In this document: in pieces, positions 7,438 to 34,962 of the stretch
Position numbering within the stretch: the stretch's first letter is position 1
Layout of the letters: each line of letters begins with the position of its first letter
Source of the DNA: a virus
Strand: one strand, 5' to 3'
DNA: 49,335 nucleotides
IMG/VR virus record: IMGVR_UViG_3300045988_128238
Location: 1-49,335 of that record
Position numbers and translations under genes: made by a program
Notes under the pieces: generated by a model
Database searches by the model: none
Told to the model about the DNA's origin: nothing
Seen by the model: the letters and a program-made list of their open reading frames with translations, nothing else

Positions 7438-7439
7438 CA

Positions 7440-7841: not shown

Positions 7842-7851
7842 AGAAGAAAAA

Positions 7852-8058
7852 ATGCAAGCTATTGCTTACAATATTTCTAAACTCTTATATGTTCAAGGTT
7901 GGACCCAGCTTAAACTTGCTAAAGCTTTAGGTGTAAGTCATACAACTATCCAAAACTATGTCAATCAGAAAAAACTTGCATCTGATTCATCAATCAAAAA
8001 ACTTGCTGAAATTGCAGGAGTTACTGAAGAAGAATTTCTCATTGAAGGGAGCTTCTAA
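7852..8058 (+). CDS. Small HTH protein (68 aa)
   Basis: WTQLKLAKALGVSHTTIQNYVNQ. ATG 7852 chosen; the upstream part of the track ORF overlaps the acidic tail of the previous gene. Confidence 0.6.
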   Translation: MQAIAYNISKLLYVQGWTQLKLAKALGVSHTTIQNYVNQKKLASDSSIKKLAEIAGVTEEEFLIEGSF

Positions 8059-9334: not shown

Positions 9335-9344
9335 GGGTACTAAG

Positions 9345-13145: not shown

Positions 13146-13167
13146 TTAATAGAAAAGGAATTTTAAA

Positions 13168-13320
13168 ATGAACTATCTTTACACTATCAACCTATATCAA
13201 AATGACAAGAAAATTCACAGTGAACAACTTATCTCTATTGGGAACTACAAGAGCCTTAATAGACTACTTGTGGGTGAAGAAGAAATCCATCTAACAGTTA
13301 AGGTGGAAGAAGATGAGTAA
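13168..13320 (+). CDS. Small hypothetical protein (50 aa)
   Basis: Hand-translated. AAAGGA upstream; overlaps the next ATG. Confidence 0.4.
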   Translation: MNYLYTINLYQNDKKIHSEQLISIGNYKSLNRLLVGEEEIHLTVKVEEDE

Positions 13321-13996
13321 GATTAAATATAATGGTTATATGGAATTTGCAAATGCCTTAGAAGAAGTATTTACACAAGTCTCAGGAGACCATACAAGCC
13401 CTGTAGTTAGTTATATCTATGATGCTGTAGAATTAATTAAGAAAGCTACACCAGGCTTCTTAGAAGGCTACTGTGCTGTTAGTGTCCATGATGCTTATGA
13501 AGGAGGACTACCTGCTCATACGGTTAAGGTATTCTCTCAGCTATGTAGCTTTATGTTTGGTGGAGATGGTACTAATAAATTCTATAACAACATTAATGAT
13601 TGTGTTGATATGCCTGCTCTTATTATTGGTTGTATCATTCATGACTTTGGTAAGTCATTTGAGTATCTAAATGGTAAACGACATGAGAACTCGTTTGTAC
13701 CTCACACATTGTTTGGTATTCATCTTCTAACTAAACTAGAAGCTGACATCCTTACTAAGTATTCTATGGGTACTTATCTACGATTGATGGCTGTTATTGG
13801 TCAACATCATGGAGACTTTGGAGAGAAACCACAGTGTATTGAGTCTTATCTAATTCACTTGGCTGATTACCAAGAAACTAAACTACAGATTCTTGAAGAA
13901 GCTATTGAAAGTGCTAAAGATTATGGTGATGATGTAGTTACATCTAAGTATCTGCCATATAAACTTAATTGTGGAGGTGGTAATATTGACTTTTAG
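13313..13996 (+). CDS. HD-domain phosphohydrolase
   Basis: IIHDFGK ... GQHHGDFG. Confidence 0.7.
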   Translation: MSKIKYNGYMEFANALEEVFTQVSGDHTSPVVSYIYDAVELIKKATPGFLEGYCAVSVHDAYEGGLPAHTVKVFSQLCSFMFGGDGTNKFYNNINDCVDMPALIIGCIIHDFGKSFEYLNGKRHENSFVPHTLFGIHLLTKLEADILTKYSMGTYLRLMAVIGQHHGDFGEKPQCIESYLIHLADYQETKLQILEEAIESAKDYGDDVVTSKYLPYKLNCGGGNIDF

Positions 13997-14282
13997 TCTA
14001 GGACAGTTAGTAATTGCAGATGGTAAAAAGGGTGTAGTTACTAACATTGGTAAAGGAGCTTATGCTGTCAATATTGAAGGAACTAATAAATGGTTCAATG
14101 AAGAAGACATTGTAAGTATGTTTCCTAAAGATAGTGTTCAATTCTATCAAGGTAGCTTATTAGATGTTGAATTTAAAATCAATCAGTACCTAATTAAAAA
14201 TAATAACAAGACTGTCAAACAAATTTCTGCTTTTGGAAGTGGTAAAGATAGTGTTGTAGTAGTGGTATATACCAATTATTAA
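13986..14282 (+). CDS. Hypothetical protein (98 aa from TTG 13986)
   Basis: GGAGGTGG lies 6 nt upstream of the TTG. The track start GTG 13971 is also possible. Confidence 0.55.
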   Translation: MTFSLGQLVIADGKKGVVTNIGKGAYAVNIEGTNKWFNEEDIVSMFPKDSVQFYQGSLLDVEFKINQYLIKNNNKTVKQISAFGSGKDSVVVVVYTNY

Positions 14283-14373
14283 GCCTACTGGTAGACCTAA
14301 AGGCTCTAAGGATAAACTACCTAGAGTTAGAGGTACAAGTAAGGTTGATAAGTCTCCTGAAGCTTACAAAGCT

Positions 14374-14646
14374 ATGAAGAAGTATATAGATTTAGAAAAG
14401 GAATACAACAAAATCAAAAAGCTTAAGAAGGAGTATAGGAATGGTTCATCTCAGCAAAGGTTTTATACAAAGAGGTTAAGACAGATAAGACAAAGACAAG
14501 CTGATTTGTATGAAATAATAGCTGAGAACCATCTAGCCTATAAACTAGCTGAGAAGCTTAATATAGGCATTACACAGCCTTACAGAAGGTATCTAAGGGC
14601 TAAAGGAGAAGGTACTAAATGGAAACACAAGAACAAACAATCTTAG
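14374..14646 (+). CDS. Basic hypothetical protein (90 aa); true start unclear
   Basis: No SD before the ATG. The frame is open from 14263 and encodes an AT-hook (PTGRPKGSK) upstream. Confidence 0.5.
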   Translation: MKKYIDLEKEYNKIKKLKKEYRNGSSQQRFYTKRLRQIRQRQADLYEIIAENHLAYKLAEKLNIGITQPYRRYLRAKGEGTKWKHKNKQS

Positions 14647-15104
14647 CTCTTGATGTATCAACTACAAGTACAGGTTACGCTCTTTATGTTGGTGATAAGC
14701 TTACTAAGTATGGTTTTGTTAAACCTACTGGTAAGGATTGGTTAGTCAGAGTAAGAAAGATGGCGGACAAAGTAGCTGAACTAGATAAAGAGTTTAGTAT
14801 TGATACTGTAGTTATTGAAGATACTTTCTTCTTAAAGAACATTAAGACAGTCAAGAAACTGTGTCTAGCACAAGGTATATTGCTTGGACAGTTACCTAAA
14901 GCTAACCTTATTCAAGTATTCCCTAACACCTGGAAGAAACACTTTGGACTAGGCAAAGGGAAAGCTACACGAAGTGAACAAAAGCAAACATCTATTTCTG
15001 TAGCTGAAACACTATTCCTAATTAGTGCTGAAATTAATGATGATGAAGCTGATGCTATCCTTATGGGTAGATATGTACTTGAAACATTGAAAGGTGGTAA
15101 ATGA
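14619..15104 (+). CDS. ruvC: RuvC-like Holliday junction resolvase
   Basis: ILALDVSTTSTGYAL, VVIEDTFF, DDEADAILMG. Confidence 0.8.
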   Translation: METQEQTILALDVSTTSTGYALYVGDKLTKYGFVKPTGKDWLVRVRKMADKVAELDKEFSIDTVVIEDTFFLKNIKTVKKLCLAQGILLGQLPKANLIQVFPNTWKKHFGLGKGKATRSEQKQTSISVAETLFLISAEINDDEADAILMGRYVLETLKGGK

Positions 15105-15250
15105 TGGACTTAAAAGACCTATTCTATTTCATTTGTGCTATCATTGGTATTCTATGGATTGCCATTGTATCACTATCATTTGTGCTTGGTTTAATTGCTA
15201 AAGCTACAGAAAAACGACTTGAACGTATCAAGTCACTAGAAAACAACTAG
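15101..15250 (+). CDS. Small membrane protein (49 aa)
   Basis: ATGA overlap with the ruvC stop. TM segment FYFICAIIGILWIAIVSLSFVLGLI. Confidence 0.4.
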   Translation: MMDLKDLFYFICAIIGILWIAIVSLSFVLGLIAKATEKRLERIKSLENN

Positions 15251-15392
15251 AATAAATTACATGTAGTTTGATTAGTGCTTGAACAACAATAATTAAACTA
15301 AACAAAATATTTGAAAACAAAGTATTTAAAACAATTATCACTTAATAACAACTAACTCTTTTCAAACTCTAGAAAAACTAGAAGATTTCACT

Positions 15393-15421
15393 GGCTATAG
15401 ATTAATCTCTATAGCCTTTTA
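15393..15421 (+). terminator. Intrinsic terminator at the end of the rightward arm
   Basis: GGCTATAGA-ttaatc-TCTATAGCC followed by TTTTATT. Confidence 0.75.
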
Positions 15422-15483
15422 TTGTGCCCTAATTTGCTTTGTAATCAATTCTAATAGCTTCTTAGGGTAAATATACTAGGGTA

Positions 15484-15513
15484 TAATAAAAGACCCTTAG
15501 AACGTCTTCTAAG
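15484..15513 (-). terminator. Intrinsic terminator at the end of the leftward (late) arm
   Basis: Minus strand reads CTTAGAA-gacg-TTCTAAG, then ggtcTTTTATTA. Confidence 0.55.
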
Positions 15514-15617
15514 AGCCTTATATAGCCACTAAGTCATTGTAACCCAGTTGACCTAGTTGGGGAGGTGATTTACTCCTTTTAATTTTATAGTGGTGTGGCT
15601 ATAAGCCTATTATACCA

Positions 15618-16058
15618 CTATTTCCAGAATCTGTAAGCAGTCCAACTGTTAATACTAAACTCACCTAGAAATTCTAGTGACTTAAAGTCTGTTGATTCTT
15701 CAGGTAACTGATTACCATATTCATCAAAGTTATAGACTTTAGCACCATCATTAGCATAAGAGAAAGAGTTATAGTCAGTAATAACAGCTACATCCTTCTT
15801 AGGTTGCCATAGTCTAGTTACAGTACCATCATTATTCTTTGTTTCACTAACAAAGTTATAGACTCTGTAGTTATCAAAGTAAGTAAGGAAAGCACCACTT
15901 GTAGAACGATTAATCACTCTACCATCATTACTGTTAGAGTTATAACCATATCTATTATACCTAGTGTCAGGGTTATAGTTACTTGTTACACTTGCATGAG
16001 CTACAGTAGCTACACCAAGGGCAAGTAAAACAGTTAGAGTAGCAATTAGTTTCTTCAT
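15618..16058 (-). CDS. Secreted protein with Sec signal peptide (146 aa)
   Basis: MKKLIATLTVLLALGVATVAHA/SV, with a GAGGGG SD. It begins 2 nt after the endolysin stop. Confidence 0.7.
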   Translation of the reverse strand: MKKLIATLTVLLALGVATVAHASVTSNYNPDTRYNRYGYNSNSNDGRVINRSTSGAFLTYFDNYRVYNFVSETKNNDGTVTRLWQPKKDVAVITDYNSFSYANDGAKVYNFDEYGNQLPEESTDFKSLEFLGEFSINSWTAYRFWK

Positions 16059-16060
16059 TA

Positions 16061-18373
16061 TTACCCCTCGTTTGATACTTCCAAGTTACCTTTAATAGTA
16101 ACTTTACCAAGAGCATCTTGTACTGATGTAGCTTTAATCTTTTCAATAGCTTCTACCACTTTAGCATTTGCATCACTAATAGCTTGTTTAATCTCTTGTG
16201 CATCTCTTGATTGACTATCAATAAATCTACCAAAGTCAGCATCAGGAAGGTTAAGGTGTTTAGCTCCTGCATTTTGTAGTTGGAATACAGTTTCCATATC
16301 ACCAATACCGAATACTCTACCGTTAACTACAGCTACATAACCACTATCACCAGTTTGATTTCTTACTACAAAGTTCATATCTTCATCCTCTTCTTCAATA
16401 CTAGATGATGTTACTTCATCATCAATCAATACAATGTTTTTATCTAGTCCACCTGCAATACCAGTAGAAGTAAACTGCCACCATCTCATGTGTTCCATAT
16501 CAGGATATACACCCCAGTAAGGAGTAGGTGTTACTTCATAGTTAGGATATCCTGCAATCCATAGACTATTAGGATACTTAGCAGTAACTTGGTCAATATA
16601 GACATTTGCTAGTGTATAAGGCTTGTAGCTATAGTAAATAGGTTCAAAGCCTGCTTGTTTACACTTATCCATAAAGGCAATTACAGCATCAGTGTTAGCT
16701 TGTACATTACCACTAGCACTATCTTCATAGTCACATACTAAGTATCTAGGCTTACTTGGTAGATTGTTAATAAAGAAGTCAGCTTCAGCTTGTGCTAAAC
16801 CTACATCTCCACCGAATCTAGCAAAGTGATAATAACCTACACAATTACTTGTATTAGTTTGTTGTGTAGCTACAGGACTTAACCATCCAACACCCTCAGA
16901 TACCTTAATAATAGTATTTCTAGTACCACTAGCATTACAAATATCTGTTAGGTCTCCTGGTTGGTATGCAGATACATCAATGAAGTAATCATCTTTTTTA
17001 AGACCACTAGCTACAGAAGATGGTTCTGAGCTGTTAGTGACTACTGCAGTATTGTTAGCTGATTTAGGTCTAAAGGCAGTAGCAAATGTAGCTGAGTAAG
17101 GAAGAGCTACAATGTTGAATACTCCACCACCATTAGTATTCTTTTGTTCTCCACCTTGGTTTTGACCTAGAAAGTTACCGTATCCATTACCTGCATCACT
17201 GTCAAAGATAGCTACATGTGAATAAGGTGTTGAAGGTGTAACATCAAAGATAGCTACATCTCCTGCTTGCATTACTTCAACTTCATCAAAGTAGTTAAGA
17301 ATACCATTGCTATGTCTTTGAGTCCATAGGTCTTGTGCATAACCACTGTCAGTACAGTTGATTATAGGATAACCAAGATATTTACAGTATTCTGCAAAAC
17401 CATCCCAACAATTATGATGAAGTTGATTATCAGCATAGTAACTGTGGTCTCCATCAGTATTTAGAACATAAATAGTATCTTCACCAATTTCTTCTAGAGA
17501 AATAAAGTTATTAATTAAGTTCCTCTTTTTATTTACTGATAGTTTCCATATTGGTTTAGGATTGTCTGTAAAGTTTGTAGCTTCTCTATCGTGTCTCTTA
17601 CTAAGGCAAGCAGAAATACCGTTAATATGACATCCATGTTGTAAAGTAACAAGTAATTGTTTATTTACTGAGTAACCTACAGTGGTATTAGAACCCTTCT
17701 TATCGTGTCCATCTGCCTTAAGGTAACCTTCAATGATAAGTAAATACTGTTCCTTAGTGAATACATCTGTAAGTTCTTTATTACTAAAGTCTTGGATAAC
17801 TTTAAGTAATTCAGGATGGAATCTTACCTGTAGGTTTACAATATCTGCCTTACCATTTGAGTGTTTATGTGAGGTACAATTTACATTTAAGTTTTCTAAG
17901 TAACCTAGTTTATCATCAGTACCTACAGTGATGAATACTGTTGATGTTTTTGAGTTTTTCCATCTTTTTCTTACACTACCATCACCCAACCAGAAACCAA
18001 AGAATCTAAGTTCATCATCTGTAAGGTCATATACCTTATCTGATTCACTAAGGTCTAAGGCAATACTATCACCTTGCTTAAGCTCAGTAACAGGTTTATA
18101 AGTACCGTCCTTAAGGAATACCTTATGGTCTTTAGTTACTTTAAACCAACCCTGAGAAGTGTTTAACCAGTACACTGTAGATTGTTTAGGCTCATTACTA
18201 ACTACAGTGTTTCCTGTGGAAAGTACATCACCTTCAACAATATCTTTTACTAGCTTATAACTACCATCCTTTAGCTTTACAAGATATTCTCCTGTAAGAC
18301 ATTGGTCTCCGAACCAACCATCAAGGTCATAACCATTACCAAGGTGAGTATTTTTAAAGTCTTGATAACTCAT
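16061..18373 (-). CDS. Endolysin: intein-interrupted CHAP + GH25 muramidase + C-terminal wall-binding domain
   Basis: CHAP: GYDLDGWFGDQ[intein]CWDGFAEYCKYLG ... SHVAIF. GH25: IDVSAYQ, IIKVSEG, GYYHFARF, LVCDYED. Confidence 0.85.
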   Translation of the reverse strand: MSYQDFKNTHLGNGYDLDGWFGDQCLTGEYLVKLKDGSYKLVKDIVEGDVLSTGNTVVSNEPKQSTVYWLNTSQGWFKVTKDHKVFLKDGTYKPVTELKQGDSIALDLSESDKVYDLTDDELRFFGFWLGDGSVRKRWKNSKTSTVFITVGTDDKLGYLENLNVNCTSHKHSNGKADIVNLQVRFHPELLKVIQDFSNKELTDVFTKEQYLLIIEGYLKADGHDKKGSNTTVGYSVNKQLLVTLQHGCHINGISACLSKRHDREATNFTDNPKPIWKLSVNKKRNLINNFISLEEIGEDTIYVLNTDGDHSYYADNQLHHNCWDGFAEYCKYLGYPIINCTDSGYAQDLWTQRHSNGILNYFDEVEVMQAGDVAIFDVTPSTPYSHVAIFDSDAGNGYGNFLGQNQGGEQKNTNGGGVFNIVALPYSATFATAFRPKSANNTAVVTNSSEPSSVASGLKKDDYFIDVSAYQPGDLTDICNASGTRNTIIKVSEGVGWLSPVATQQTNTSNCVGYYHFARFGGDVGLAQAEADFFINNLPSKPRYLVCDYEDSASGNVQANTDAVIAFMDKCKQAGFEPIYYSYKPYTLANVYIDQVTAKYPNSLWIAGYPNYEVTPTPYWGVYPDMEHMRWWQFTSTGIAGGLDKNIVLIDDEVTSSSIEEEDEDMNFVVRNQTGDSGYVAVVNGRVFGIGDMETVFQLQNAGAKHLNLPDADFGRFIDSQSRDAQEIKQAISDANAKVVEAIEKIKATSVQDALGKVTIKGNLEVSNEG
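17411..18301 (-). mobile_element. Class 1 intein (297 aa) with LAGLIDADG homing endonuclease
   Basis: Cys1 (CLTGEYLV), block B TKDH, LAGLIDADG motifs FFGFWLGDGS and IIEGYLKADG, C-terminal LHHN followed by +1 Cys. Confidence 0.85.
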
Positions 18374-18582
18374 TACTTAACTCCCTTATTGTAGCTAGCT
18401 GATGATAGACCTACCAAAGCACCAATGAATGAGCCTAAAGCAGTCAATACAGTAACAATAATACCTGTAGTTTCAGGATAACCTACAGCAATACCTACAG
18501 TACCTACAAAGGTAGCTAAAGCAGGAATGAATGTAATTGCTACAAACTTAAGGATATCATAAGTTTTGTTATTAAAAATCAT
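18373..18582 (-). CDS. Holin (phiLC3/LL-H-like, 69 aa)
   Basis: KTYDILKFVAITFIPALATF, two TM segments, AGAGGAAAG SD, directly upstream of the endolysin. Confidence 0.8.
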   Translation of the reverse strand: MIFNNKTYDILKFVAITFIPALATFVGTVGIAVGYPETTGIIVTVLTALGSFIGALVGLSSASYNKGVK

Positions 18583-19015
18583 TGTATCTTTCCTCTCTAA
18601 TTTCTAGTTTGTCATACTTGCTATAGAGCATTTTAATTTCACCATTACCCCCATTATTCTGATAAATTGTATACATCTTAGCCATCTCTGTAGCTTCATC
18701 TACAAAGGTGTAACCACGCTCTAAAGCTTTGACCAGTGCATTATATAAGCCAATCCTAAAGTGGCTCTTAGTGAAGCTCTCAGTAGCCTCTATACGCTTT
18801 TGTTGAGCTTCATTGTCAATAACTAAGTCTCTGACATCATTAGTAAGTTTAGAAAGAGTTTCATTTAATTGATTTTGATGAGCAATTATCTGTACTCTTT
18901 CTTCTCTACTTTCTTTGATGCTCTTCTTAACTGTCATGTAAATACCTACACATGTAGATAGTGTTGATACTGCTCCCCCTACAGTAGTCATTAAAATATC
19001 AACTGATATATTCAA
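18572..19015 (-). CDS. Membrane-anchored protein (147 aa), possible second holin or lysis regulator
   Basis: N-terminal TM VGGAVSTLSTCVGIYMTV followed by a coiled coil. TTG start is uncertain. Confidence 0.5.
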   Translation of the reverse strand: MNISVDILMTTVGGAVSTLSTCVGIYMTVKKSIKESREERVQIIAHQNQLNETLSKLTNDVRDLVIDNEAQQKRIEATESFTKSHFRIGLYNALVKALERGYTFVDEATEMAKMYTIYQNNGGNGEIKMLYSKYDKLEIREERYNDF

Positions 19016-19017
19016 TT

Positions 19018-19980
19018 CTACTTACCTTCTTCTTTAGGTTTAGTGTCCTCTTCTTTTTTCTTCTTCTCTTCCTCTTCTTTTTGCTTGCGTTCAGCAATCT
19101 TTTCATCAGACCAATCACAAGCTCCACAAAGTACATTACAAGGGTCAGTAGGTAGACCAATGTTAGGGTTGTGGTTAATATACTGAGCTGTAATACTACT
19201 TCTAGTAGGTGCATATACCCACTCATCAAGTGTAGATAGCATCTTAAGAACATCAGATGAACCACCTTCAGGCTTCAAGTCAAACTCTCTATTGTAATCA
19301 AGAGTTCTGTTGATATCTTGTTCAAAAGACTGGCCAGGGTCATAAGCTTTTTGATAGATAACATTATCATTAATATCATAGATAGTGAATCTACCATTGT
19401 GATGAGTAGTAGGTGCTTTATTGACATACTTAATTCTATCAACCTTAATACCAGTAATCTTAGCATGGATAGAACCATCTTTGTTAGGTGTGTAGCTGTG
19501 AATAACTTTACCATAAACATTACCAACACCTACTTCACCAGTGTCTACCATGTTCCATACAATAGTAAAGTTACCATTAGTATCAGTTTTAACTACACTA
19601 TAAGTTTGTCCACCACCTGTTTCAACTACAGTAGTGTTAGACTTCATAGATAGTTCTACTTTGTCACTAAGCTTACCAATTAGGAAGTCTACAAGAGCAT
19701 TTAGTTTCTTTTCATGACAGTTAGCTACAGCACATAGGTTATTTACACGCTTATCTAAGTTAACTACCATAATAAGTAAGTCTCTTAGGAAACACCATAG
19801 AAAGTAAGCATACTGAGCAAGTCTCTTAGGTAGTCCTACACAAGATGTATTTGCTAGTAAACAAGCATAGTCTTTTAAGACCTTAAGCTTCTTCTCCATT
19901 ACATCTTGTCTTTGTTCTACTTCTACACAGACATCAATCTTTTCACATTGACAGTCTCCACATTGTCCTAGACAAGACAT
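19018..19980 (-). CDS. Cys-rich-N-terminus tail fibre/receptor-binding protein (320 aa)
   Basis: The N-terminal 65 aa are paralogous to those of 19980-21542. Located in the distal tail module. Confidence 0.5.
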   Translation of the reverse strand: MSCLGQCGDCQCEKIDVCVEVEQRQDVMEKKLKVLKDYACLLANTSCVGLPKRLAQYAYFLWCFLRDLLIMVVNLDKRVNNLCAVANCHEKKLNALVDFLIGKLSDKVELSMKSNTTVVETGGGQTYSVVKTDTNGNFTIVWNMVDTGEVGVGNVYGKVIHSYTPNKDGSIHAKITGIKVDRIKYVNKAPTTHHNGRFTIYDINDNVIYQKAYDPGQSFEQDINRTLDYNREFDLKPEGGSSDVLKMLSTLDEWVYAPTRSSITAQYINHNPNIGLPTDPCNVLCGACDWSDEKIAERKQKEEEEKKKKEEDTKPKEEGK

Positions 19981-21542
19981 TATTTACCTCCAGTTAATTC
20001 TTTAGGTACAGGTGTTAAGTCTCCACAAGTAACACTAATAGCTTTAACCTCAAAGAGTTGTGGTTCTTCAGGTCTAGTAGGCTTAATAGGCTCTGTAGGC
20101 TTAGTTCCTGTAGGTTGTGTAGGTCTAATAGGTTCTGTTACTGTAGGCTCACTAGGTCTAACAGGTTCAGTCTGAGTAGGTCTAGTTGGTTCTACAGGTT
20201 TATTACCGTTAGGAGCTACAGGTTCTGTAGGTCTTTCTGGTACAACTACAGTCTTCTTAGTAGGTTCTTTAGGTCTACCTTCCAAAGAAATAGTAGGAGC
20301 AGTAATCTTAAGTGATACTTTATTGTGAGAACCTTCTACCCACAAGTCATCATATAACAAGAAATCAATGGTTTGGGACTGTCCTTGACTGATATTAATA
20401 TCATGAGATAGAGGATAAGTAACATCTAAGGCTTGTGTAAATGCTGATTGTCCTCTATATGATTTAGACCAGATAACAGCTCCATTAGGTTTCTTGTAAG
20501 TAATACTAAAGTCTGAGAAAGCTACTTTAGGAGATACCTTATCATAGCTAACCTCTTGAATAGTAACACTGTTAGCTTTAATATTAACACCACCAGTAAT
20601 ACCACTGTATGTAGCATTAAAGCCTACCTTACCTCTAAGAACCCAATAACCAATATTTTCAGTACCGTCAAAGATAGGAGACTTAATAGTAAAGTTACCA
20701 GTATTCTTATCAAATGTGTATTCATCAGGAAGGTCAGCACCAGTATTGTCTAACTCTGAGAACTCAAAAGTATAACCAATATTACCTACAAGAGATGATT
20801 CCCACTGCTTAATAGCTTTGTTGTATTCAGCAATAGCTGTCTGATAGTCAGATTCAGCCTTCTCAGCCTCTCTAAGCTTGTCATTGTATTCCTTAAGCTT
20901 TCTATCATACTCAGCCTTAAGACGTGCATAGTCGCTGTTAGAAGCGTTATATGATGCCATATCTTTGTTATACTTCTCTACAGCTTTAGTATACTCAGCC
21001 ATTACTTTTCTATAAGCTTCTAAGTCAGTGTTATATTTAGCAAGAGCTGTAGTATAATCACTTCTTAGCTTATCATAGTTAGCTTTGTCTTTTTCATACT
21101 GAGCTACAGCATCCTCATAGTCTTTGTTAGCTTTATTAAAGCTTGCTAGACCATCTTGATAGAGCTTGTAGTTCCTATTGTAAGTCTCCATAGCTTCATT
21201 GTATAAAGCTAGTTTAGTGTTATATTCGTTGAGAATCCTAGAGTTTTCTTTGTTAGCAGTAAGTTGTTTTTCTACTTCTACAGCTAAGTCTGAAATCTTT
21301 CTACAAAGCTCTTCATCACGCTTCTTAAACACTGTAAGGTCTAACTCTTGTTGCATCCTAAGAATATCTCTTAAGATACACCATAGCATGTAGAACCCTT
21401 TAGATAAGATTCTAGGAAGGTCAATACAGTTAGCGTTAGCAATAACACATACCAAGTCATGAAGGACTCTTAGCTTGTCTTCAATGTCTTTTTTATTTTT
21501 AGCTTCAATACATTCACAATCATTGCATCCAGTACAAGCCAT
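19980..21542 (-). CDS. Tail fibre/adhesin-like protein: Cys-rich N-domain, Tyr-heptad helix, beta domain, Pro-rich tract (520 aa)
   Basis: See findings. Domain boundaries were counted by hand. Confidence 0.55.
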   Translation of the reverse strand: MACTGCNDCECIEAKNKKDIEDKLRVLHDLVCVIANANCIDLPRILSKGFYMLWCILRDILRMQQELDLTVFKKRDEELCRKISDLAVEVEKQLTANKENSRILNEYNTKLALYNEAMETYNRNYKLYQDGLASFNKANKDYEDAVAQYEKDKANYDKLRSDYTTALAKYNTDLEAYRKVMAEYTKAVEKYNKDMASYNASNSDYARLKAEYDRKLKEYNDKLREAEKAESDYQTAIAEYNKAIKQWESSLVGNIGYTFEFSELDNTGADLPDEYTFDKNTGNFTIKSPIFDGTENIGYWVLRGKVGFNATYSGITGGVNIKANSVTIQEVSYDKVSPKVAFSDFSITYKKPNGAVIWSKSYRGQSAFTQALDVTYPLSHDINISQGQSQTIDFLLYDDLWVEGSHNKVSLKITAPTISLEGRPKEPTKKTVVVPERPTEPVAPNGNKPVEPTRPTQTEPVRPSEPTVTEPIRPTQPTGTKPTEPIKPTRPEEPQLFEVKAISVTCGDLTPVPKELTGGK

Positions 21543-21552
21543 TTAGTACCTC

Positions 21553-22053
21553 CTATTTATTTACTAGAGTGATAGTAGCATCATTCTTTTTAATTAGTAC
21601 CTTAGACACTGACTTACCATTACCAAGGTCAATAGTTGCATAAGCTTTAGCATCTGAGTTATCAGCTACAGCCTTACCTGAAGGATGAAGGAATCCTACA
21701 AATTGACTTTGGTAAGTTCCTTTAGTTCTTACCCAAAGACCATAGGTATCTGAGTCAGAAATAATAGAATCAGTGTATCTATTGTAAGTCTTACCATAGG
21801 TAAACAATACTCTAGGTCTATCTAAGTCATAAAGCTTTTTAGGTCTATATACACCATCAGCATATTCATAGACAAACCCTCTATAGAATACCTTCTTATC
21901 AGCAAAATCAGTAGGGTTACAGTAGATTGCATACTCAGACAGAATCTTAAGCATGTCTACATTACTATCAAAATGGTAGAGATTGATAGAGTCTAATACT
22001 GAATTGTCTATACTACCTACAGGAAGTCTCTTAACAATACCATATTCTTTCAT
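21553..22053 (-). CDS. Hypothetical tail/baseplate protein (166 aa)
   Basis: ORF in the fibre module. Confidence 0.5.
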   Translation of the reverse strand: MKEYGIVKRLPVGSIDNSVLDSINLYHFDSNVDMLKILSEYAIYCNPTDFADKKVFYRGFVYEYADGVYRPKKLYDLDRPRVLFTYGKTYNRYTDSIISDSDTYGLWVRTKGTYQSQFVGFLHPSGKAVADNSDAKAYATIDLGNGKSVSKVLIKKNDATITLVNK

Positions 22054-23009
22054 TAGTTAGTTACCTCTTCTAGTGTGTAATATAGTTGGTTGATGATAAG
22101 TGTAGGTTCAGCTACCTTAGTTTCAATAATGAACTCATCTGCAAAGTTAGCTCCAAAGATTGTACCTTTTGTAATGTTATCAATAGACATTGGTACATTA
22201 AGCATTGGTTCTGGCAATACATTTAGACTATCTCTAATATCTAACTTGAAGAAATCAAAGCTGAAGGCAAAGTAACTTTCCTCACCTCTTCTGACTTCAA
22301 ATGAAATGTTGATATTACCATAAGGTGTTGTTAGTGTTCCATAACCTTTAAGTGTAGTATCACCAATAATAGTTACAGGAATTACTAACTCTACCTCTAG
22401 GTTTGTTTTCTCAGATTTAGCAAAACCACTACCTGAAATTGTGTAAGTAATCTTAGGAAACTTAACTACAAGCTCTGAAGCTGACAATACATCCTGATGG
22501 TTAATACCTGTTACTTTCATAGTATTAGGAGCTAAAGGATAATTACTTGGTTGTGGGTTTAAGGAAGTGAAATTAACCTCTGCAGGTGTACCTGTTACAT
22601 TATACTTAAGTCTGTACTTAGTGTTGGTATCAACTACAGAGTTGTTAATAGTACCATCTTCAGTAATAGTAATACCATTACCTGCTTTGTAAGTAGTTCC
22701 TTTAGGAAGCTCTACTGAGTTACCATTACTAATACTTAGTGTAGTACCGTTTAGAGTCAGTGTTTGTTTATCTTTATCTTCTTTAGCTTCTAATTTCTCT
22801 ACTCTAGCTACAAGAGGCTTATCATCATAAGAAGTACCTCCTGTAGTTGCTGTAGATGTCAATTCAGTAAAGCCATCACCACTTTCATTTAGGATATAGG
22901 CTTTATTGTCAGGCATAATATAGGCATGGTTTCTAGTAGCATAGTCTAGGTCAGGCAATGCTTCTACCCTTTTAAATACAGGGTTACACCATGAAATACA
23001 GTCACCCAT
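22053..23009 (-). CDS. Tail fibre protein (318 aa)
   Basis: N-terminal LPDL..Y..PD.K.Y motif shared with 23483-24181. EDKDKQTLTLNGTTLSISNGNSVELP fibre-type repeat. Confidence 0.55.
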   Translation of the reverse strand: MGDCISWCNPVFKRVEALPDLDYATRNHAYIMPDNKAYILNESGDGFTELTSTATTGGTSYDDKPLVARVEKLEAKEDKDKQTLTLNGTTLSISNGNSVELPKGTTYKAGNGITITEDGTINNSVVDTNTKYRLKYNVTGTPAEVNFTSLNPQPSNYPLAPNTMKVTGINHQDVLSASELVVKFPKITYTISGSGFAKSEKTNLEVELVIPVTIIGDTTLKGYGTLTTPYGNINISFEVRRGEESYFAFSFDFFKLDIRDSLNVLPEPMLNVPMSIDNITKGTIFGANFADEFIIETKVAEPTLIINQLYYTLEEVTN

Positions 23010-23019
23010 TTAATACCTC

Positions 23020-23469
23020 CTATTTACGTTCAATGTCACTATAGTTAATCATAGAGACAATACCATTGTCATTATAATCTTTAAGTGATTCCCATGAAAC
23101 ATCTTTTTGAATAGTCAATGGTTTGTTGACAGTTACTAGACCATACTTAGTCTCACCTTGTGTGTCTTTATAGTCAGGGTTTTCTAGTTTAAACATAGCA
23201 TCTACACCATAAGTAAGACCTACAATAGGTTTATTGAATAAGTTAATTAGACTAGCCCACTGAGTACCATAGAGGGAAGGAGCATATAGAAGAACTGAAG
23301 CAATAGTTTCAGTGTATGAAGGAGTGTTCTGTAGGTTTAGAACTTCCTTAACCATATCATCTGATTCTAAATTACCTTCATAAGTCCAATTAAGATAAGG
23401 TCTATTGTCAGTTACAGTGATTAGAGGAAAGTTATCTTCTCTCTCTTCTCTTTTGATTTTAATAGCCAT
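23020..23469 (-). CDS. Hypothetical tail protein (149 aa)
   Basis: ORF with SD, in the fibre module. Confidence 0.5.
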   Translation of the reverse strand: MAIKIKREEREDNFPLITVTDNRPYLNWTYEGNLESDDMVKEVLNLQNTPSYTETIASVLLYAPSLYGTQWASLINLFNKPIVGLTYGVDAMFKLENPDYKDTQGETKYGLVTVNKPLTIQKDVSWESLKDYNDNGIVSMINYSDIERK

Positions 23470-23482
23470 TAATTACCTCCTA

Positions 23483-24181
23483 TTACAAGTGGTCATTATC
23501 ACGTCTACTTTGTACTTCAAGGTACTCTACCCTAGCTTCTAAAGTTTCTTTAGCTACTCTAAGTGTTTCCACTGTAGATTCCAAAGTAGTAAGTCTAGTT
23601 TCTACAGAAATAAGTCTAGCTTCCAATCCTGAAGGGTCAAATACAGTATCTTTGTCTTCTTTAGTTTCAAGCTTAGCTACAGTGTCTTTTAGTTCATCAA
23701 TAGCTTTCTTAACTTCAGTGTCGTCATAGATAGTGTCTTTGTCCTCTTTAGCGTTTAAGGCATCTGAGAGCTTCTCTACTGCTTTGTTTACATCCTCTAG
23801 TCCTGTTACACTAGCCTTGTCTTTAAGCTCCTTTTTAAGGGCTTCTACGGCTTCTGAGAGGGTGTTATCTTTTTCAGTAGGTTTTTCTTCATTCTTAGCT
23901 TTAATAGCTTTCTCCACTTCAATGACTCTATTAGTCAAGTCTAGTAGTACATTAAGCTTATTAGTCTCTGTAGCTTCATCTCTAGTCAATTCAAGCCAAG
24001 CAGTACAGTTAGCATTTGCATACCACAACTTAGAGTCTGGTGTACGATACAAGTAATGTCTTGATGTTCTACCTAGTGTAGGAAGACAATTAACATCTAA
24101 GATAGGTTTACAGTTAGAGCTGTATTGTCCTGAACATTCATTGCACTCATTACAGCTATTACATCCACAGTTTGCACACAT
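23483..24181 (-). CDS. Cys-cluster/coiled-coil fibre protein (232 aa)
   Basis: MCANCGCNSCNECNECSG start, (K)EDKDT repeats, C-terminal heptads. Confidence 0.5.
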   Translation of the reverse strand: MCANCGCNSCNECNECSGQYSSNCKPILDVNCLPTLGRTSRHYLYRTPDSKLWYANANCTAWLELTRDEATETNKLNVLLDLTNRVIEVEKAIKAKNEEKPTEKDNTLSEAVEALKKELKDKASVTGLEDVNKAVEKLSDALNAKEDKDTIYDDTEVKKAIDELKDTVAKLETKEDKDTVFDPSGLEARLISVETRLTTLESTVETLRVAKETLEARVEYLEVQSRRDNDHL

Positions 24182-24195
24182 ATTGTGTACCTCCT

Positions 24196-24402
24196 TTATT
24201 TATATAGTTCTACTTTAGCTAAGTAACTAAGTTGTTTAATCTCCCTAGTTCTTCTAAGAGCTTCTGACCTAAGATATAGAATACAGATAACTGCTTGATA
24301 GTCTTCAGGATGATTAAGTAAGTGTTTATCTAGTAAGTCTATCCGTCTATTAACTACAGATAGCTTAAGTGACTTCTTTCTAAGGATATTGGTGTAATTC
24401 AT
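24196..24402 (-). CDS. Hypothetical protein (68 aa)
   Basis: ORF only. Confidence 0.4.
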   Translation of the reverse strand: MNYTNILRKKSLKLSVVNRRIDLLDKHLLNHPEDYQAVICILYLRSEALRRTREIKQLSYLAKVELYK

Positions 24403-24410
24403 TGTAACTC

Positions 24411-26585
24411 CTAATTTAAGTGGTTGTACTTAAGATAAGTTCTTAAGATTACATCTGCTTGCATTGAACCTGTAATTTCTACTAGATGTTCACCACTTCT
24501 AAAGATTTTCTTTTGTTGTTCTTCAGTTAGTGCTGTAGCTCCTAACATAACATCATAACCGTGGTTAGGTTTATCATCTGGGAATACTGAGTATTTATCA
24601 ATCCATTTACCATCATATTGAGCTTTAAACATTGGTGTAAAGTCAATACCATCAATCTTAACCTTGATGTCTCCTGCAAACTTAGCTACATAGTTTCTAG
24701 TAAGAGAGCCATCAGTATTACCAATACTCTTACCACCTGCTACTTCAGGAGGATAGATAAGATGTCTACCACCACTGAGCATATCATCCATAGTTCTTTG
24801 TCTCTCAACTACAAACCTTTGTCCTGATACATTCTGCTCTAGTGTTGTTACTGTGTCACCATTAATAGCTTTGATAACACCTGTGTGACCATAAGGACTA
24901 TACTGATTAGTTTCAGTAAAGATAGCTCCTACCTTCATAGCTTCCCTAGATGTAGGTACTACTTTCCATCCTACTGCTCCCCAATCATAACCAACACCAA
25001 TGTTACTAGCTGATAGTGTATCACCTATGGCATGAGTAATACCAGTAATACCACCACCAAGACCTACACCGCCTAGTTTCATTGAGTACCAAGCTACAAG
25101 ACCGTAACACTCACCATTACCTAGTGTAGTACCTTTAAGTGAGTCTAGCTCACCAAGTACCTTCATGGTTTCTGTAGCTGTCTGTACCTCTCCTGTAGCT
25201 CCATTAGGTTCACCACTACTAGCAGTACCAACAATACCTCCAAAGTCAGACATTCCTGAACCTCTATTGTTGTTACCATCTGATTGTCCTCCACCACCTG
25301 ATGAGTGGAATACAGTACCCATAGTCATACTATCAGTAGGCTTAAATGAGATGTGAACATGGTCTCCGTGGTTCTGAGTCTTATTACCTCTGTCAGGCAT
25401 TAAGCTCCACACCCTAGCAGGTCCATAGATATTATTGACATTCATGAAGAACTTCTGACCCCATATTACATAGTCAATATTTAATTCATCCATGTTCTCA
25501 ATAACAAACCCTGCAATAGTATCTCCTAGCCTATAGTTATCATTAGTCATGAAGTCTACTGCTAGTGATTGGTCAGGTTGGTGACCAGGATAGGTAATGA
25601 ATTGTTCTTCAGGAGTATTAGTAGCAATAGCTATAGCTCTTTTAACCCTAGCTACATGTGGTTGCCAAGCTCCTGTAGCTCCATCCCAATGGCTTCTAAT
25701 AATGTCTCCAAAGGCATTACCATCAATCAAGTCATAGTATCCATTAGAACCATCTGAAGCATTTGTAGGTTGAAGTAACTGTGCATCAATCTTATCAAGT
25801 ATATTATCATTGTTTGAGTTAATACCTGACCTTACATCATTTGCTAAAGAGTAGTAAGAAGCGTACCCTGCGGCAGCATAGTCAAACAAAGCTCCACCAA
25901 CTTGAAATAGTCCTTTTATGAACTCATCAAATGTAGTTTTACCTTGGACATTATACATCTTTTGGTTGTTACCTGCAGTTTGTTCAGCTAGCAAATACAT
26001 GTAGTCAATAAGGAAGTCATCTACAGAAGCGAAGTGCATATATGTACCACCTTCATTAGATGGTCTAGCACTACCTGTAGTAACTACAACACCTGAAGGT
26101 CTAGTTCCTGCTGTACCAGTAATACCACCCCAGTTATTATCTGCTTTAGCTACTGCTGAGTTACCCCAGTTAGACTCAATATAAAGTTGAACAATGACAC
26201 CTGAAGGAAGTAGATTATACTTAGCACATCCATCAAGGATAGTTTGTACTAAGCTTGCAGGAAGTGTATTACCACCATAAGTAATATCACCACCAGTATA
26301 CTTCTTATCACCACCAAAGGCTGAGCCTTTAGTAGAACCACCTTCTTTAAGTCCTGTCTTTACTCCATATGGTCTAACAATGATTTTAAACCACCAATGA
26401 GCAAACTTGTCAAAGTCATAAGATATAGAAGTATAAAACTGAGCAGGAACATTACTTGTCATTACTGATTGATACTCAATACCATGCAAGTCAGTTACTG
26501 AGAACCTTCTTTGAAATCCTTGTCTCTTCCATCTCTCTGTAGATGAATTGACAGCATTTAAAAGCTTCTGTGCTTCTGTCTGCAT
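24411..26585 (-). CDS. Tail-associated lysin: GH73 glucosaminidase + His-x-His module + CHAP
   Basis: GH73: VQLYIESNWGNS...NNWGGI. Middle module: NHGDHVHISF. CHAP: GNGECYGLVAWY ... YGHTGVI. Confidence 0.75.
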   Translation of the reverse strand: MQTEAQKLLNAVNSSTERWKRQGFQRRFSVTDLHGIEYQSVMTSNVPAQFYTSISYDFDKFAHWWFKIIVRPYGVKTGLKEGGSTKGSAFGGDKKYTGGDITYGGNTLPASLVQTILDGCAKYNLLPSGVIVQLYIESNWGNSAVAKADNNWGGITGTAGTRPSGVVVTTGSARPSNEGGTYMHFASVDDFLIDYMYLLAEQTAGNNQKMYNVQGKTTFDEFIKGLFQVGGALFDYAAAGYASYYSLANDVRSGINSNNDNILDKIDAQLLQPTNASDGSNGYYDLIDGNAFGDIIRSHWDGATGAWQPHVARVKRAIAIATNTPEEQFITYPGHQPDQSLAVDFMTNDNYRLGDTIAGFVIENMDELNIDYVIWGQKFFMNVNNIYGPARVWSLMPDRGNKTQNHGDHVHISFKPTDSMTMGTVFHSSGGGGQSDGNNNRGSGMSDFGGIVGTASSGEPNGATGEVQTATETMKVLGELDSLKGTTLGNGECYGLVAWYSMKLGGVGLGGGITGITHAIGDTLSASNIGVGYDWGAVGWKVVPTSREAMKVGAIFTETNQYSPYGHTGVIKAINGDTVTTLEQNVSGQRFVVERQRTMDDMLSGGRHLIYPPEVAGGKSIGNTDGSLTRNYVAKFAGDIKVKIDGIDFTPMFKAQYDGKWIDKYSVFPDDKPNHGYDVMLGATALTEEQQKKIFRSGEHLVEITGSMQADVILRTYLKYNHLN

Positions 26586-28271
26586 TTATACCTCCTTGTC
26601 ATTGTATAGATACTTCTCTACTGTCAGTTTAAAGCTTGTGAATCCATCATAAGTAGTTGTAACTAGGATTTCTGAGATATAAAAGTAGTCATCCATAGTC
26701 ATTACCTTCTTAAAGTATTTAGAGCATTTCTCTGACTTAAGAAGTCTATCTACAAATGTTAGTCTTACTTTATCACCTACATTGTAGTTGTTAGGTAAGT
26801 CTTTAATATCAAACGTATATCCTACTTTTCTTCTACTGTGGATAAGCTTTCTTACTGCTTGTGTATAGAGTTGTCTACTAGCTACAAGACGGTCTTCATC
26901 AGATAGTTCCTTATTGTTGTTAGCTACAGGTTGGACATCATTTGATGTGAATGATTGTTCATATACTCTACCTGCTTCAAGAGCTAAACCTTCCTTATCC
27001 AATACAGCATAGTCACCATTGTTGTTAGCTCCAAAAGGAATTAAGTCAATGTAGTCATAACTACGCTCAGTATTTACTTCCTCACCAGTAAGGATAACAG
27101 GAAAGTCAGGATTCTGTAGATAAGGTCTATTATAGACATCTCTAAGAGTAAGAGTAGTAGTACCTGAGTCTGACTTATCTGTAAGATAGATACCATAGTT
27201 AGTAATGGTAGTAAAGTCTCTTTGAGTTACTAAATCATTACCTAACAAGTTGGTTTCATTGACCATTAACTCTTTATACTGACCAAACTTACCAATTTCA
27301 ATTGTTCTTTCTTCAGTAAGTGATACTCTCCAAAAGACATCCTCAGTCTGTTTACAAACATCTGTAAGAGCTTGTAGCTTATCTTGGTTAGAGAATAGGT
27401 AAGTAATAACAATATCATCTGTACCTTCTTCAGTGAACTTATAAGTCCAATTCTCATCATTGAACATACCACTGAGTTTAGACAATTCAACATAGTTTAC
27501 TGAGATACCATCATCTTTAGTTGTGTTATCTCCTTTATCTACATCCTTGTCTTCTTTTGGTTTTTCAGTAGTTACTTCAGTCTTACCTTTGTTGTAACCA
27601 TCCTTTGTAGTTACTGTAGTAGTAACTGTACCATCAGGTCTAGTTGTTACTGTAGTTTGAGTATAAGCTCCTTTACCAGTAACTACTTTAGTAATATGAC
27701 TGACTACTTCCCTAGTAGTACCATCTGACATCTCATAAGTAGTAGTCTTAGTTTTACTACCATCTTCATTATAGACTGTGTTAATAGTCTTATTACCAGT
27801 CTTAGTTACTTTCTTTTCTTCAGGCTCACCATCTTTTTTGTCTTCTTCTCTAGGTTTTTGGTTTGAGATAATCTCTCCACCTTCACCCATTGAAGCAGGT
27901 CTAATATACTCATCATAAGTATATATCTCACCTAGTGTAAGTTCTTTGATGGCATAGTTTGTAGGTACTCTTCTGTGTTGTAGTTCAGTAGCTACATGGA
28001 CTGCTTGAATAGTAGTAACTCCTGTGACATGGTCTGAATCAATTCTTTCAGTAATACCATGAAAGATATGTCCATTATCAAAGGTTAGAACAAACTCAAA
28101 CTGAGCATCAGGAATAGGACTACCCATTAACACTTCAGTAGGAAGTTGGAAACTAATACTAGGTGTATCCATAATCTTATGACTTACACTAATATTATTA
28201 CCTAAGAAGACATCATTAGTAATGTAGTGTCTAGTGTCCTTAGTTGGTTTCCAATACAGAGTCAGGGACAT
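26586..28271 (-). CDS. Tail-associated (Tal-like) baseplate protein with Thr-rich insert (561 aa)
   Basis: Position in the tail module. GGAGGT SD. Low-complexity TTVTTRPDGTVTTTVTTKDG segment. Confidence 0.5.
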   Translation of the reverse strand: MSLTLYWKPTKDTRHYITNDVFLGNNISVSHKIMDTPSISFQLPTEVLMGSPIPDAQFEFVLTFDNGHIFHGITERIDSDHVTGVTTIQAVHVATELQHRRVPTNYAIKELTLGEIYTYDEYIRPASMGEGGEIISNQKPREEDKKDGEPEEKKVTKTGNKTINTVYNEDGSKTKTTTYEMSDGTTREVVSHITKVVTGKGAYTQTTVTTRPDGTVTTTVTTKDGYNKGKTEVTTEKPKEDKDVDKGDNTTKDDGISVNYVELSKLSGMFNDENWTYKFTEEGTDDIVITYLFSNQDKLQALTDVCKQTEDVFWRVSLTEERTIEIGKFGQYKELMVNETNLLGNDLVTQRDFTTITNYGIYLTDKSDSGTTTLTLRDVYNRPYLQNPDFPVILTGEEVNTERSYDYIDLIPFGANNNGDYAVLDKEGLALEAGRVYEQSFTSNDVQPVANNNKELSDEDRLVASRQLYTQAVRKLIHSRRKVGYTFDIKDLPNNYNVGDKVRLTFVDRLLKSEKCSKYFKKVMTMDDYFYISEILVTTTYDGFTSFKLTVEKYLYNDKEV

Positions 28272-28824
28272 TACCGAATACCTCCACAGCTCTAGCCATT
28301 ACAGCTTCTTCAGACATGTCCTCATGTTTAGATTCTACATTAGACATGATTTCATTCATCTCTTCTTGTGAACGGATAGAGTCAGCAAAGCAAGCACTAC
28401 ATGGTTGTGGATAGAATCCTAAGAATCCTGCTACAACTACATTGAATAACTCTACAGAAGAGTGATAGATTTCTTCTACTTCAGCATTATTCATATCTAC
28501 TTGCCAAGCTTCAAAAGCAGTAATCATTTGTACTGAAGCATGTTTTAGAGAACACCACAAGTCAGGGTTAGCATCATCTGTAGAAAGGCTCTGTAAGGCT
28601 CTCATAACGCTTCTACGCTGTTCTGTAGTTCTCTCTAGTGTTTCCTTCGCAAACTGCAGTTTCTTTGTTAGAGAGCTTCTCACAGCTTCATCTGATGTTC
28701 CTTTAACATAAAGCAAAGAATAATACTTTTCTACTGTAAGTCTGAAGTGATATTCAAGAGCTACAGTGTTGATTAAGTTGGTAAGTAGTTCTTCTGTTAG
28801 TCCTACTGATGATTGTTTGTTCAT
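28240..28824 (-). CDS. Hypothetical helical protein (194 aa)
   Basis: ORF between the Dit-like and Tal-like genes. Confidence 0.5.
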   Translation of the reverse strand: MNKQSSVGLTEELLTNLINTVALEYHFRLTVEKYYSLLYVKGTSDEAVRSSLTKKLQFAKETLERTTEQRRSVMRALQSLSTDDANPDLWCSLKHASVQMITAFEAWQVDMNNAEVEEIYHSSVELFNVVVAGFLGFYPQPCSACFADSIRSQEEMNEIMSNVESKHEDMSEEAVMARAVEVFGNVPDSVLETN

Positions 28825-34948: not shown

Positions 34949-34962
34949 ACTCTACCTCTTTC

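Follow-up and report, generated by a model that had tools for sequence, protein, structure and literature searches.

The locus and its predicted protein

The stretch of viral DNA described here (the window, that is, all of positions 1 to 49,335 of IMG/VR record IMGVR_UViG_3300045988_128238) carries on its minus strand an open reading frame (ORF) of 520 amino acids (aa), which we call the target. A first-pass annotation, made from the sequence alone, had drawn attention to the interval 20058-21245, corresponding to aa 100-495 of this ORF, and had suggested a fibre protein with a possible alpha-helix/polyproline-II (PPII) hairpin stalk of the kind found in the antigen I/II (AgI/II) adhesins of streptococci. 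Following the usage for those proteins, A denotes the heptad-bearing helix, V the intervening domain and P the Pro-rich region.

The window represents a tailed phage. The order of genes on the minus strand starts with terminase, portal and prohead protease, after which comes a tail protein of 1663 aa (a related contig has a counterpart that bears a TMP_3 domain). Distal tail proteins, two tail-associated lysins and four small ORFs follow, then the target, a 320-aa paralog of it, a 147-aa ORF and a 770-aa endolysin, and the plus strand carries a DNA polymerase/primase-helicase module. Orthologs of the target were found on about 20 IMG/VR contigs of ~49 kb and every one was exactly 520 aa long; near-identical ~49 kb contigs recur in IMG/VR, ENA and Logan assemblies. 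The parts of the protein are collected in Table 1 together with other features of the window, including the Cys-rich N-terminal module (N-module) and the C-terminal tail (C-tail); AF2 stands for AlphaFold2.

Table 1. Positions of the target, of its parts and of other features in the window
Feature	Position	Strand	Basis and remarks
Whole ORF, putative modular phage adhesin (N-module, helix, V domain, Pro-rich return strand, C-tail)	19980..21542	-	520 aa plus stop
N-terminal Cys-rich module, aa 1-76	21315..21542	-	Family alignment; C3, C6, C9, C11, C32, C39 and C55 invariant; LWC motif
Single long alpha-helix, aa 77-252, outgoing stalk arm	20787..21314	-	AF2; about 264 Å; contains invariant Cys80 ('EELC')
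21 Tyr-phased heptads, aa 107-253, AgI/II A-region-like part of the helix	20784..21224	-	Sequence
V domain, aa 253-420, BspA-V-type beta-sandwich, presumed ligand-binding head	20283..20786	-	Pfam, PDB, Foldseek
Pro-rich return strand, aa 421-505, proposed antiparallel PPII arm	20028..20282	-	Pro pattern, AF2
C-terminal tail, aa 506-520	19983..20027	-	Alignment; opens with conserved Cys506 ('CGDLTP'); putative staple with Cys80
Stalkless tandem paralog, 320 aa	19018..19980	-	Pfam, alignment; Cys-rich N-module and BspA_v (Pfam E 7.8e-18), C-tail 'CNVLCGAC'
Endolysin, 770 aa (CHAP and GH25)	16061..18373	-
Apparent intein with LAGLIDADG endonuclease, within the endolysin	approx. 17411..18301	-
Primase-helicase-polymerase fusion, 1266 aa	9345..13145	+
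Upstream ORF sharing its N-terminus with a gene of contig L001	22053..23009	-
Second upstream ORF of this kind	23483..24181	-

Heptad tyrosines and a proline-rich tract

The first-pass annotation had counted aromatic residues at 20 of 21 heptad positions between aa 107 and 247 and 20 prolines in aa 424-494, and a recount of the ORF gave the same figures. Reading every seventh residue (107, 114 ... 247) yields YYYYFYYYYYYYYYYYYAYYW, i.e. 18 Y, 1 F, 1 W and 1 A. With aromatics making up about 9% of the protein, composition arithmetic puts the chance of 20 in-phase aromatics at 21 positions in the order of 1e-19. The heptads have L, M, V or I at +4 and Ala at +3 and +5 (consensus Y-N-K-A-L-A-E), which equals the Y-x-x-x-L-A-x pattern that the 6tzl alignment shows for the A region of S. 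mutans (YEAKLAK, YQADLAK, YQKDLAD), and this motif occurs 21 times in the target. The commonest residue directly after the heptad Tyr is Asn (9/21).

Beyond the central domain, the 20 prolines fall within 71 residues, and 14 PxxP motifs could be counted in aa 421-505. The spacing of the prolines is mostly 3-3-5, giving an 11-residue period, and the sequence then continues with 'QLFEVKAISVT'. No DNA-level tandem repeat was detected by Tandem Repeats Finder in the heptad or the Pro region, which means that it is the protein sequence that maintains the periodicity and that recent slippage did not produce it.

The central domain

A beta-rich domain had been expected between the heptads and the Pro tract, and AF2 placed its strands at aa 256-414. 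Residues 279-407 match the Pfam family BspA_v (PF18220) with 30.7 bits against a gathering cutoff of 25. As a single sequence the target matched PDB entry 5dz8 (V domain of BspA, an AgI/II protein of S. agalactiae) with E 1.2e-7; with a profile of four diverged long-stalk members of the family described below, the match strengthened to E 6.7e-34. The AF2 model of the beta domain also superposed on 5dz8 (Foldseek TMt 0.67-0.69, E 2.6e-9).

Judged by sequence comparison, the central domain of the target is homologous to the BspA-type V domain. Sister members of the family bear GbpC, the other AgI/II V type; in these V domains lies the remote homology to AgI/II that the annotation had proposed to look for. 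The annotation had also raised the possibility that the protein was acquired from, or mimics, an adhesin of the host genus. Identity between V domains is only 27% for target and BspA and at most 38% for family members (P0017, E 2e-35), and this points to an old shared module rather than to a recent capture from the host.

A family of phage proteins with the same N-module

The N-module of the family spans ~95 residues, with eight invariant Cys and a Y-x-L-W-C-x-L-x-D motif in the alignment; the target carries it. When 1.84 billion representatives were searched with hmmsearch, 33 proteins with the module were recovered, 28 of them at E<=1e-10, and the family members sit on phage-like contigs of 10-50 kb. 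The module has no Pfam match, and no name for the family, which we define here by this module, was found in publications. A scan of 185,579 reference bacterial genomes returned no relatives and no prophage copy, and neither megablast of positions 19000-23000 nor tblastn of the target and its paralog gave a match among 50,697 phage records.

From N- to C-terminus, the family proteins consist of an optional ~350-aa extension, the Cys-rich module, a helix of variable length, a head, a Pro-containing return and a C-tail with one to three Cys. The head may be BspA_v, GbpC or an unrelated domain. The C-tail Cys is present in all members with a V domain and absent from members without one. The GbpC members (PF08363; P0005, P0006, P0008, P0009 and others) share the N-module, the helix, the return strand, the C-tail Cys pair and the slope of about 0.5 described in the next section; their stalks are short (35-63 helix residues from Cys to V domain), with few Tyr heptads and 2-8 Pro. 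Their A-V and V-P junction motifs ('DGYL...EPNA', 'WFAFNT') resemble those in a bacterial AgI/II-like gene. No tail ORF of the window corresponds to the ~350-aa extension at the N-terminus of P0005, P0008 and P0018, which hence gives no fusion clue to a binding partner.

Some family members depart from this layout. P0013, P0027 and P0033 are 128-191 aa long, lack a V domain and end in a conserved 'NIATGNINxFGG..D..S.IRTNNG.TENDLAGG', whereas P0026 (560 aa) combines the N-module with a long non-Tyr coiled coil and a different C-terminal domain.

Existing labels for these proteins vary. In BFVD, 'Adhesin protein' (E 1e-16 over 465 columns) and 'Glucan-binding protein C' occur as automatic labels of metagenomic siphovirus proteins, and the public names in the cluster of the target are 'hypothetical' and 'CIP4-like'. 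We rejected the latter label as well as the PHROG 'tape measure' and the Pfam myosin, tropomyosin and GAS matches as generic coiled-coil matches.

Covariation of linker lengths and cysteines

The lengths of the linkers on the two sides of the V domain were compared by regression, using family representatives clustered at 50% identity (about 20 diverged members, two V types). The anchors were the W of LWC (W54), a V-start motif, a V-end motif and the first C-tail Cys, and the invariant helix Cys served as an alternative anchor at the base. For a PPII strand returning along an alpha-helix the predicted slope is 1.5/3.1 Å per residue, i.e. 0.484. With the W54 anchor, the slope of the C-side against the N-side linker was 0.487+-0.017 for the BspA_v type (n=11, r=0.994) and 0.495+-0.021 for the GbpC type (n=10, 6 distinct points, r=0.993); with the helix Cys as anchor, the values were 0.516+-0.006 (r=0.9995, residual about 1 residue) and 0.518+-0.042, respectively. 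Across the regressions r was 0.97-0.999. The match in length between helix and Pro tract, which the first-pass annotation had described for one protein, thus holds in the target and across the family.

The rule can be followed in single pairs. P0004, which is 41% identical to the target in their alignment, has a net 21 fewer helix residues (3 heptads, -31.5 Å) and 10 fewer Pro-tract residues (-31 Å); the target itself has the longest N-side arm among the measured representatives. Length variants in the P0012 cluster (531, 525 and 521 aa) were considered as compensated indels and discarded, as they differ only in the start codon chosen. As a control we had intended the bacterial-type AgI/II gene L024 from an S. 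gallolyticus element, which has no defined base anchor and so gave no clean ratio.

The cysteines on the helix and those in the C-tail agree in height and often in number and spacing too. In the target, C80 lies 258 Å and C506 264 Å from the V domain; both are invariant in the alignments, and the chain stops 15 residues past Cys506. Eight representatives have a Cys pair 16 residues apart on the helix (24 Å) and a pair 7-8 residues apart in the C-tail (22-25 Å), P0018 has spacings of 10 and 6, and the target and P0004 have a single Cys on either side. This arrangement predicts a staple between Cys80 and Cys506 at the base of the hairpin. In addition, the Tyr array of the target spans 8-218 Å from the V domain and the Pro array 9-226 Å, so that the two are coextensive.

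Structure prediction for the proposed stalk

In the full-length AF2 model, aa 77-252 form one helix, most of which has a predicted local distance difference test (pLDDT) score of 85-89. With the helix present, the Pro tract reached a pLDDT of 70-83, an unusual value if the linker were disordered as one would suppose; once aa 1-248 had been removed, its pLDDT was only 38-48. In this rerun on aa 249-520, for which the same homologs were trimmed to that region, the V domain was still modelled confidently. Among PDB fold matches, S. mutans A3VP1 (3ipk) ranked third over 549 columns, with E 1.2e-3 and a template modelling (TM) score of 0.15. The AF2 prediction that the first-pass annotation had proposed was favourable in that the confidence of the Pro tract depends on the helix; the whole-length match to 3ipk was weak. 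We infer contact between the tyrosines and the prolines of the target, as well as the C80-C506 disulfide.

Phage fibres are commonly trimeric, and the target could be read as a conventional fibre with a parallel trimeric coiled coil, Tyr at d and Leu/Ala at a, in which the beta domain would be a knob in mid-fibre and the Pro tract a linker, flexible or extended, ahead of a short C-terminal peptide and without association with the helix. The heptad register is formally of the a/d type, and PHROG and Pfam give weak generic coiled-coil matches. Such a fibre, however, would leave unexplained the covariation of lengths with slopes of 0.49-0.52 in two V-domain subfamilies, the match of the cysteines in height and often in number and spacing together with the dependence of the C-tail Cys on the V domain, and the dependence of the Pro-tract confidence on the helix. 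Moreover, trimeric coiled coils do not typically have Tyr at every core position, whereas the A region of AgI/II typically does (PMC7732690). We therefore consider a trimeric coiled coil of this kind improbable; a trimer of hairpins would be a variant of the antiparallel helix/PPII hairpin that we prefer.

Conservation of Tyr and Pro positions within the species

Within-species variation was examined in 16 distinct sequences of the phage species. None of the 21 aromatic heptad positions was variable, compared with 34 of the 126 other heptad positions (Fisher p = 0.004). Similarly, one of 20 Pro positions varied as against 29 of 60 non-Pro positions of the tract (p = 0.0004). The N-module was the most conserved region within the species, with 3/76 variable sites and a nonsynonymous/synonymous codon-difference count of 0.07.

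These data also bear on a second alternative, a two-legged loop, in which both ends would be fixed at the N-module and the lengths would match, while the helix and the Pro strand would stand as separate struts with no lateral association. Covariation of lengths and cysteines demands only that the two arms meet at the base, not that they touch along their length. Nevertheless, separate struts do not account for coextensive Tyr and Pro arrays, for Tyr and Pro being the specifically conserved residues, or for the gain of 30-40 pLDDT points in the Pro tract when the helix is present; the heptad equals the AgI/II Y-x-x-x-L-A-x motif known to pocket PxxP (PMC7732690), and an isolated 85-residue PPII strut would be floppy. 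It seems very improbable that the arms of the stalk are separate in this way.

Comparison with antigen I/II and other adhesins

In SpaP, the heptad tyrosines interlock with PxxP pockets, the V domain is raised by tens of nm and a lock of the N-terminal with the C-terminal part stabilises the structure (PMC7732690). The alpha/PPII hybrid with its proline-aromatic contacts has been termed a novel and unique motif of streptococcal AgI/II (PMC3707005). The S. mutans protein (SpaP/P1/PAc; 3IOX/3IPK, 6TZL) and the target, the latter known from sequence and models, have in common the order of A helix, V domain and Pro-rich P region, the Y-x-x-x-L-A-x heptads, the PxxP motifs, the matching helix/PPII lengths and a V domain at the tip, and the N/C-domain lock at the base of SpaP (PMC7732690) resembles the predicted Cys80-Cys506 staple. 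They differ in that the target has a BspA-type V domain, not a GbpC/lectin-like one, and a phage-specific Cys-rich N-module instead of a cell-wall anchor. The 82-residue and 39-residue higher-order repeats of the S. mutans protein are also absent from the target, where the heptads are continuous and the Pro period is 11.

The V domain of S. agalactiae BspA (5DZ8) is homologous to that of the target. BspA has short A and P domains, and the interaction between them is said to use an Asn seam and not Tyr/PxxP interlocking (PMC7732690); the Asn that often follows the heptad Tyr in the target recalls this seam. Unlike the target, BspA is sortase-anchored and has C-domains, and in the target a BspA-type head goes together with a long Tyr/Pro stalk in the style of SpaP.

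A V domain between A and P and a Pro-rich P region with PxxP motifs behind it were both found in the target, and an antiparallel association of A and P is indicated indirectly by the helix dependence in AF2, by the length covariation and by the coextensive arrays. Other AgI/II features were looked for and not found. No signal peptide was recognised in the target, since MACTGCNDCECIEAKNKKDIEDK is polar, hydropathy averages -0.84 over aa 1-25 and no 19-residue window of the protein exceeds 1.25. There are no IgG-like, isopeptide-type C1-C3 domains (no Pfam match beyond the V domain) and no LPXTG-like motif for sortase anchoring. Lacking signal peptide, C-domains and LPXTG by these sequence measures, the target is not a full AgI/II member.

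Direct similarity in the stalk is marginal. The A region matched 6tzl with E 0.046 as a single sequence and E 0.0037 with the family profile, and BLAST of the A region of the L024 AgI/II gene against the target gave E 0.004. The 3iox match had E 0.24, and the matches of the P part to 6tzl and 3iox were not significant, so that the resemblance of the P regions may be one of composition. Of the AgI/II-type design put forward in the first-pass annotation, the V homology, the order of the regions and the length rule bore up well, but the A/P sequence similarity did so only marginally.

Other phage proteins follow the same concept, a structural protein with adhesin domains. PblA/PblB of S. mitis phage SM1 are structural adhesin-type proteins encoded beside lysis genes, and the Hoc-type Ig decorations are phage-borne adhesins; like these, the target may bind ligands other than the receptor. 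No relationship in sequence or fold between these proteins and the target came to light, no comparison aimed at them having been made, and neither PblA/PblB nor Hoc is known to use an alpha/PPII hairpin stalk. We found no description in the literature of phage-encoded AgI/II, GbpC or BspA-like proteins, and we know of no report of an alpha/PPII hybrid stalk in a virus.

Related domains were also noticed in other phage records. Enterococcus phage Efs 1-1-1 (OR846589.1, 139 kb) encodes at 98247-99218 a GbpC-like domain with 28% identity to P0009. The 106-110 kb 'phage' records from S. gallolyticus and S. suis contain a full bacterial-type AgI/II gene named 'agglutinin receptor'; the one in MN270259.1 (69428-74323, the L024 gene) encodes 1631 aa with LPXTG, and such records may be conjugative elements and not phages.

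Gene neighbourhood, paralog and host

The fibre or receptor-binding role suggested for the target is read from the position of its gene, and the N-module is presumed to be an adaptor for attachment to the virion. The family gene stands at the end of the tail module, upstream of the lysis genes, in the window and in the related phages L001 and L023, which have a Dp1-type holin before the lysin. The paralog directly behind the target has neither Tyr heptads nor a Pro tract, and the pair of a long and a short BspA_v protein, together with its gene position, is conserved in L001 and L023. After CxxxCxxC the paralog ends with the highly charged tail EKIAERKQKEEEEKKKKEEDTKPKEEGK, whose length and composition vary slightly among metagenomic copies.

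Lysins of S. agalactiae and S. parasanguinis phages share about 60% identity with the endolysin of the window, and L001 has a GBS_Bsp-like endolysin. Because of these similarities and the Dp1-type holin, the host is most likely an oral Streptococcus, as far as can be judged from sequence. The terminase has 24% identity to the Lactococcus P087 group. The zero count of prophage copies and the phage's own replication machinery argue for a virulent lifestyle.

PblA/PblB of phage SM1 are also known as lysis-released adhesins that coat host cells, and the target might similarly be a non-virion protein, either an adhesin released at lysis to coat surviving hosts or biofilm, or a moron with no role in infection. 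Its gene comes directly before the lysis cassette, the families to which its V domain belongs serve streptococci in adhesion to host and microbial ligands (PMC7732690), and incorporation into the virion is deduced from synteny only. On the other hand, the N-module family includes large N-terminal extensions and other distal domains, as is typical of the adaptor systems of tail fibres and receptor-binding proteins, and diverged phages keep both the position and the long/short pair. Conversion genes would be unusual in a virulent phage, the lifestyle suggested by the replication machinery and by the absence of prophage copies from the 185,579 reference genomes. PblB is itself a tail fibre, so that this alternative overlaps with a virion-borne adhesin. 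On balance, a location of the target outside the virion seems improbable to us.

A proposed hairpin adhesin

The AF2, fold-search, length, Cys and selection results are mutually independent and together favour a closed antiparallel helix/PPII hairpin. We regard this topology (antiparallel, laterally associated, closed at the base) as highly probable for the target, and the full proposal, which includes its function as a virion-borne adhesin, as probable. The results support the view that an AgI/II-type A-V-P hairpin stalk has been redeployed in a phage tail-module family with a new Cys-rich adaptor and predicted Cys staples.

Several observations weigh against this proposal. Few independent lineages stand behind the regressions, and the BspA_v set comes down in essence to one cluster of short members, a single intermediate and four long ones. 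The length rule fits P0025 and P0019 poorly, and P0014-16 and several stalkless members have more Cys in the C-tail than on the helix. The 3ipk fold match has a TM score of only 0.15 (E 1.2e-3), and the AF2 model has a predicted TM score of 0.37 from an alignment of 5 sequences. The A region scored E 0.016 and 15.7 bits against Pfam PF06696 (Strep_SA_rep), where the cutoff is 26, and convergent composition could explain the marginal A/P similarity to bacterial AgI/II. No isolated phage in the 50,697 records bears the family, and the association with the virion is taken from synteny. Finally, one cluster member lies within an oral metagenome-assembled genome labelled Lachnospiraceae oral taxon 082, and this makes the host less certain.

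The proposed hairpin would work as follows. The Cys-rich N-module would attach the target to the virion, in the distal tail module of a siphovirus-like oral phage, and a single alpha-helix of about 176 residues would extend from it by roughly 26 nm. The BspA-type V domain would sit at the tip of the stalk. From there the Pro-rich strand of about 85 residues would return antiparallel in PPII conformation with its PxxP prolines packed on the heptad tyrosines, and Cys506 would come to lie level with Cys80, probably forming a disulfide staple at the base once the virion is outside the cell. The stalk would be a rigid spacer that presents the V domain to its ligand, most likely a surface or matrix glycan or glycoprotein on or around the host, and the stalkless paralog would present a second V domain close to the virion.

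A broader idea, which we put forward as speculation and consider rather doubtful, is that oral streptococcal phages carry AgI/II-type adhesins with interchangeable BspA- and GbpC-type heads that bind salivary agglutinin gp340, glucan or other ligands of the biofilm matrix or of partner cells, and so position virions in plaque or pellicle and not only on the infection receptor. As a corollary, the A-V-P cassette may be exchanged between phages and streptococcal surface proteins, with phages as a reservoir or source of adhesin head diversity.

If the hairpin is correct, phages would have a further design for a fibre, a thin and long one made of a single chain whose two ends both lie at the base and whose tip carries an exchangeable head, different in principle from trimeric beta-helical or coiled-coil fibres. 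The family forms a natural length series of about 35 to 200 helix residues, from which the helix/PPII rise ratio can be read in silico and which may guide the engineering of rigid spacers. The host-recognition hardware of phages would also be linked to streptococcal adhesins of colonisation and virulence, which are vaccine targets, and this would raise the questions of shared oral ligands and of gene flow between the surface proteins of phage and host. The annotation of the target as 'hypothetical' or 'CIP4-like' could then be corrected.

Other observations in the window

Two ORFs upstream of the target share only their N-termini with L001 genes (2416-4397) and then diverge: in one of them the first 50 aa are 72% identical, in the other aa 3-100 are 53% identical. 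A conserved anchor with a variable distal part is typical of receptor-binding proteins, and the phage may have several exchangeable host-interaction proteins.

The insertion point of the apparent intein coincides exactly with the catalytic Cys in the CHAP domain of the endolysin; its Pfam matches, to intein and LAGLIDADG models, score below the cutoffs (E about 2e-4). The intein begins with 'CLTGEYLV...' behind an N-extein ending in '...DGWFGDQ' and closes with '...DNQLHHN' ahead of C322, the +1 residue in 'CWDGFAEY', so that splicing would rebuild the motif 'GDQCWDG'. In L023 (16165-21557) the DNA polymerase A gene is in pieces with a LAGLIDADG_2 gene between them, whereas the polymerase of the window is part of one fusion protein. 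Homing elements seem to be active in the phage lineage of the window and L023.

The cumulative GC skew, calculated over positions 1..49335, rises over about 2-16 kb, where the plus-strand replication genes lie, and falls from about 16 kb over the minus-strand structural and lysis genes; the switch coincides with the change of strand near 15.1-15.6 kb.

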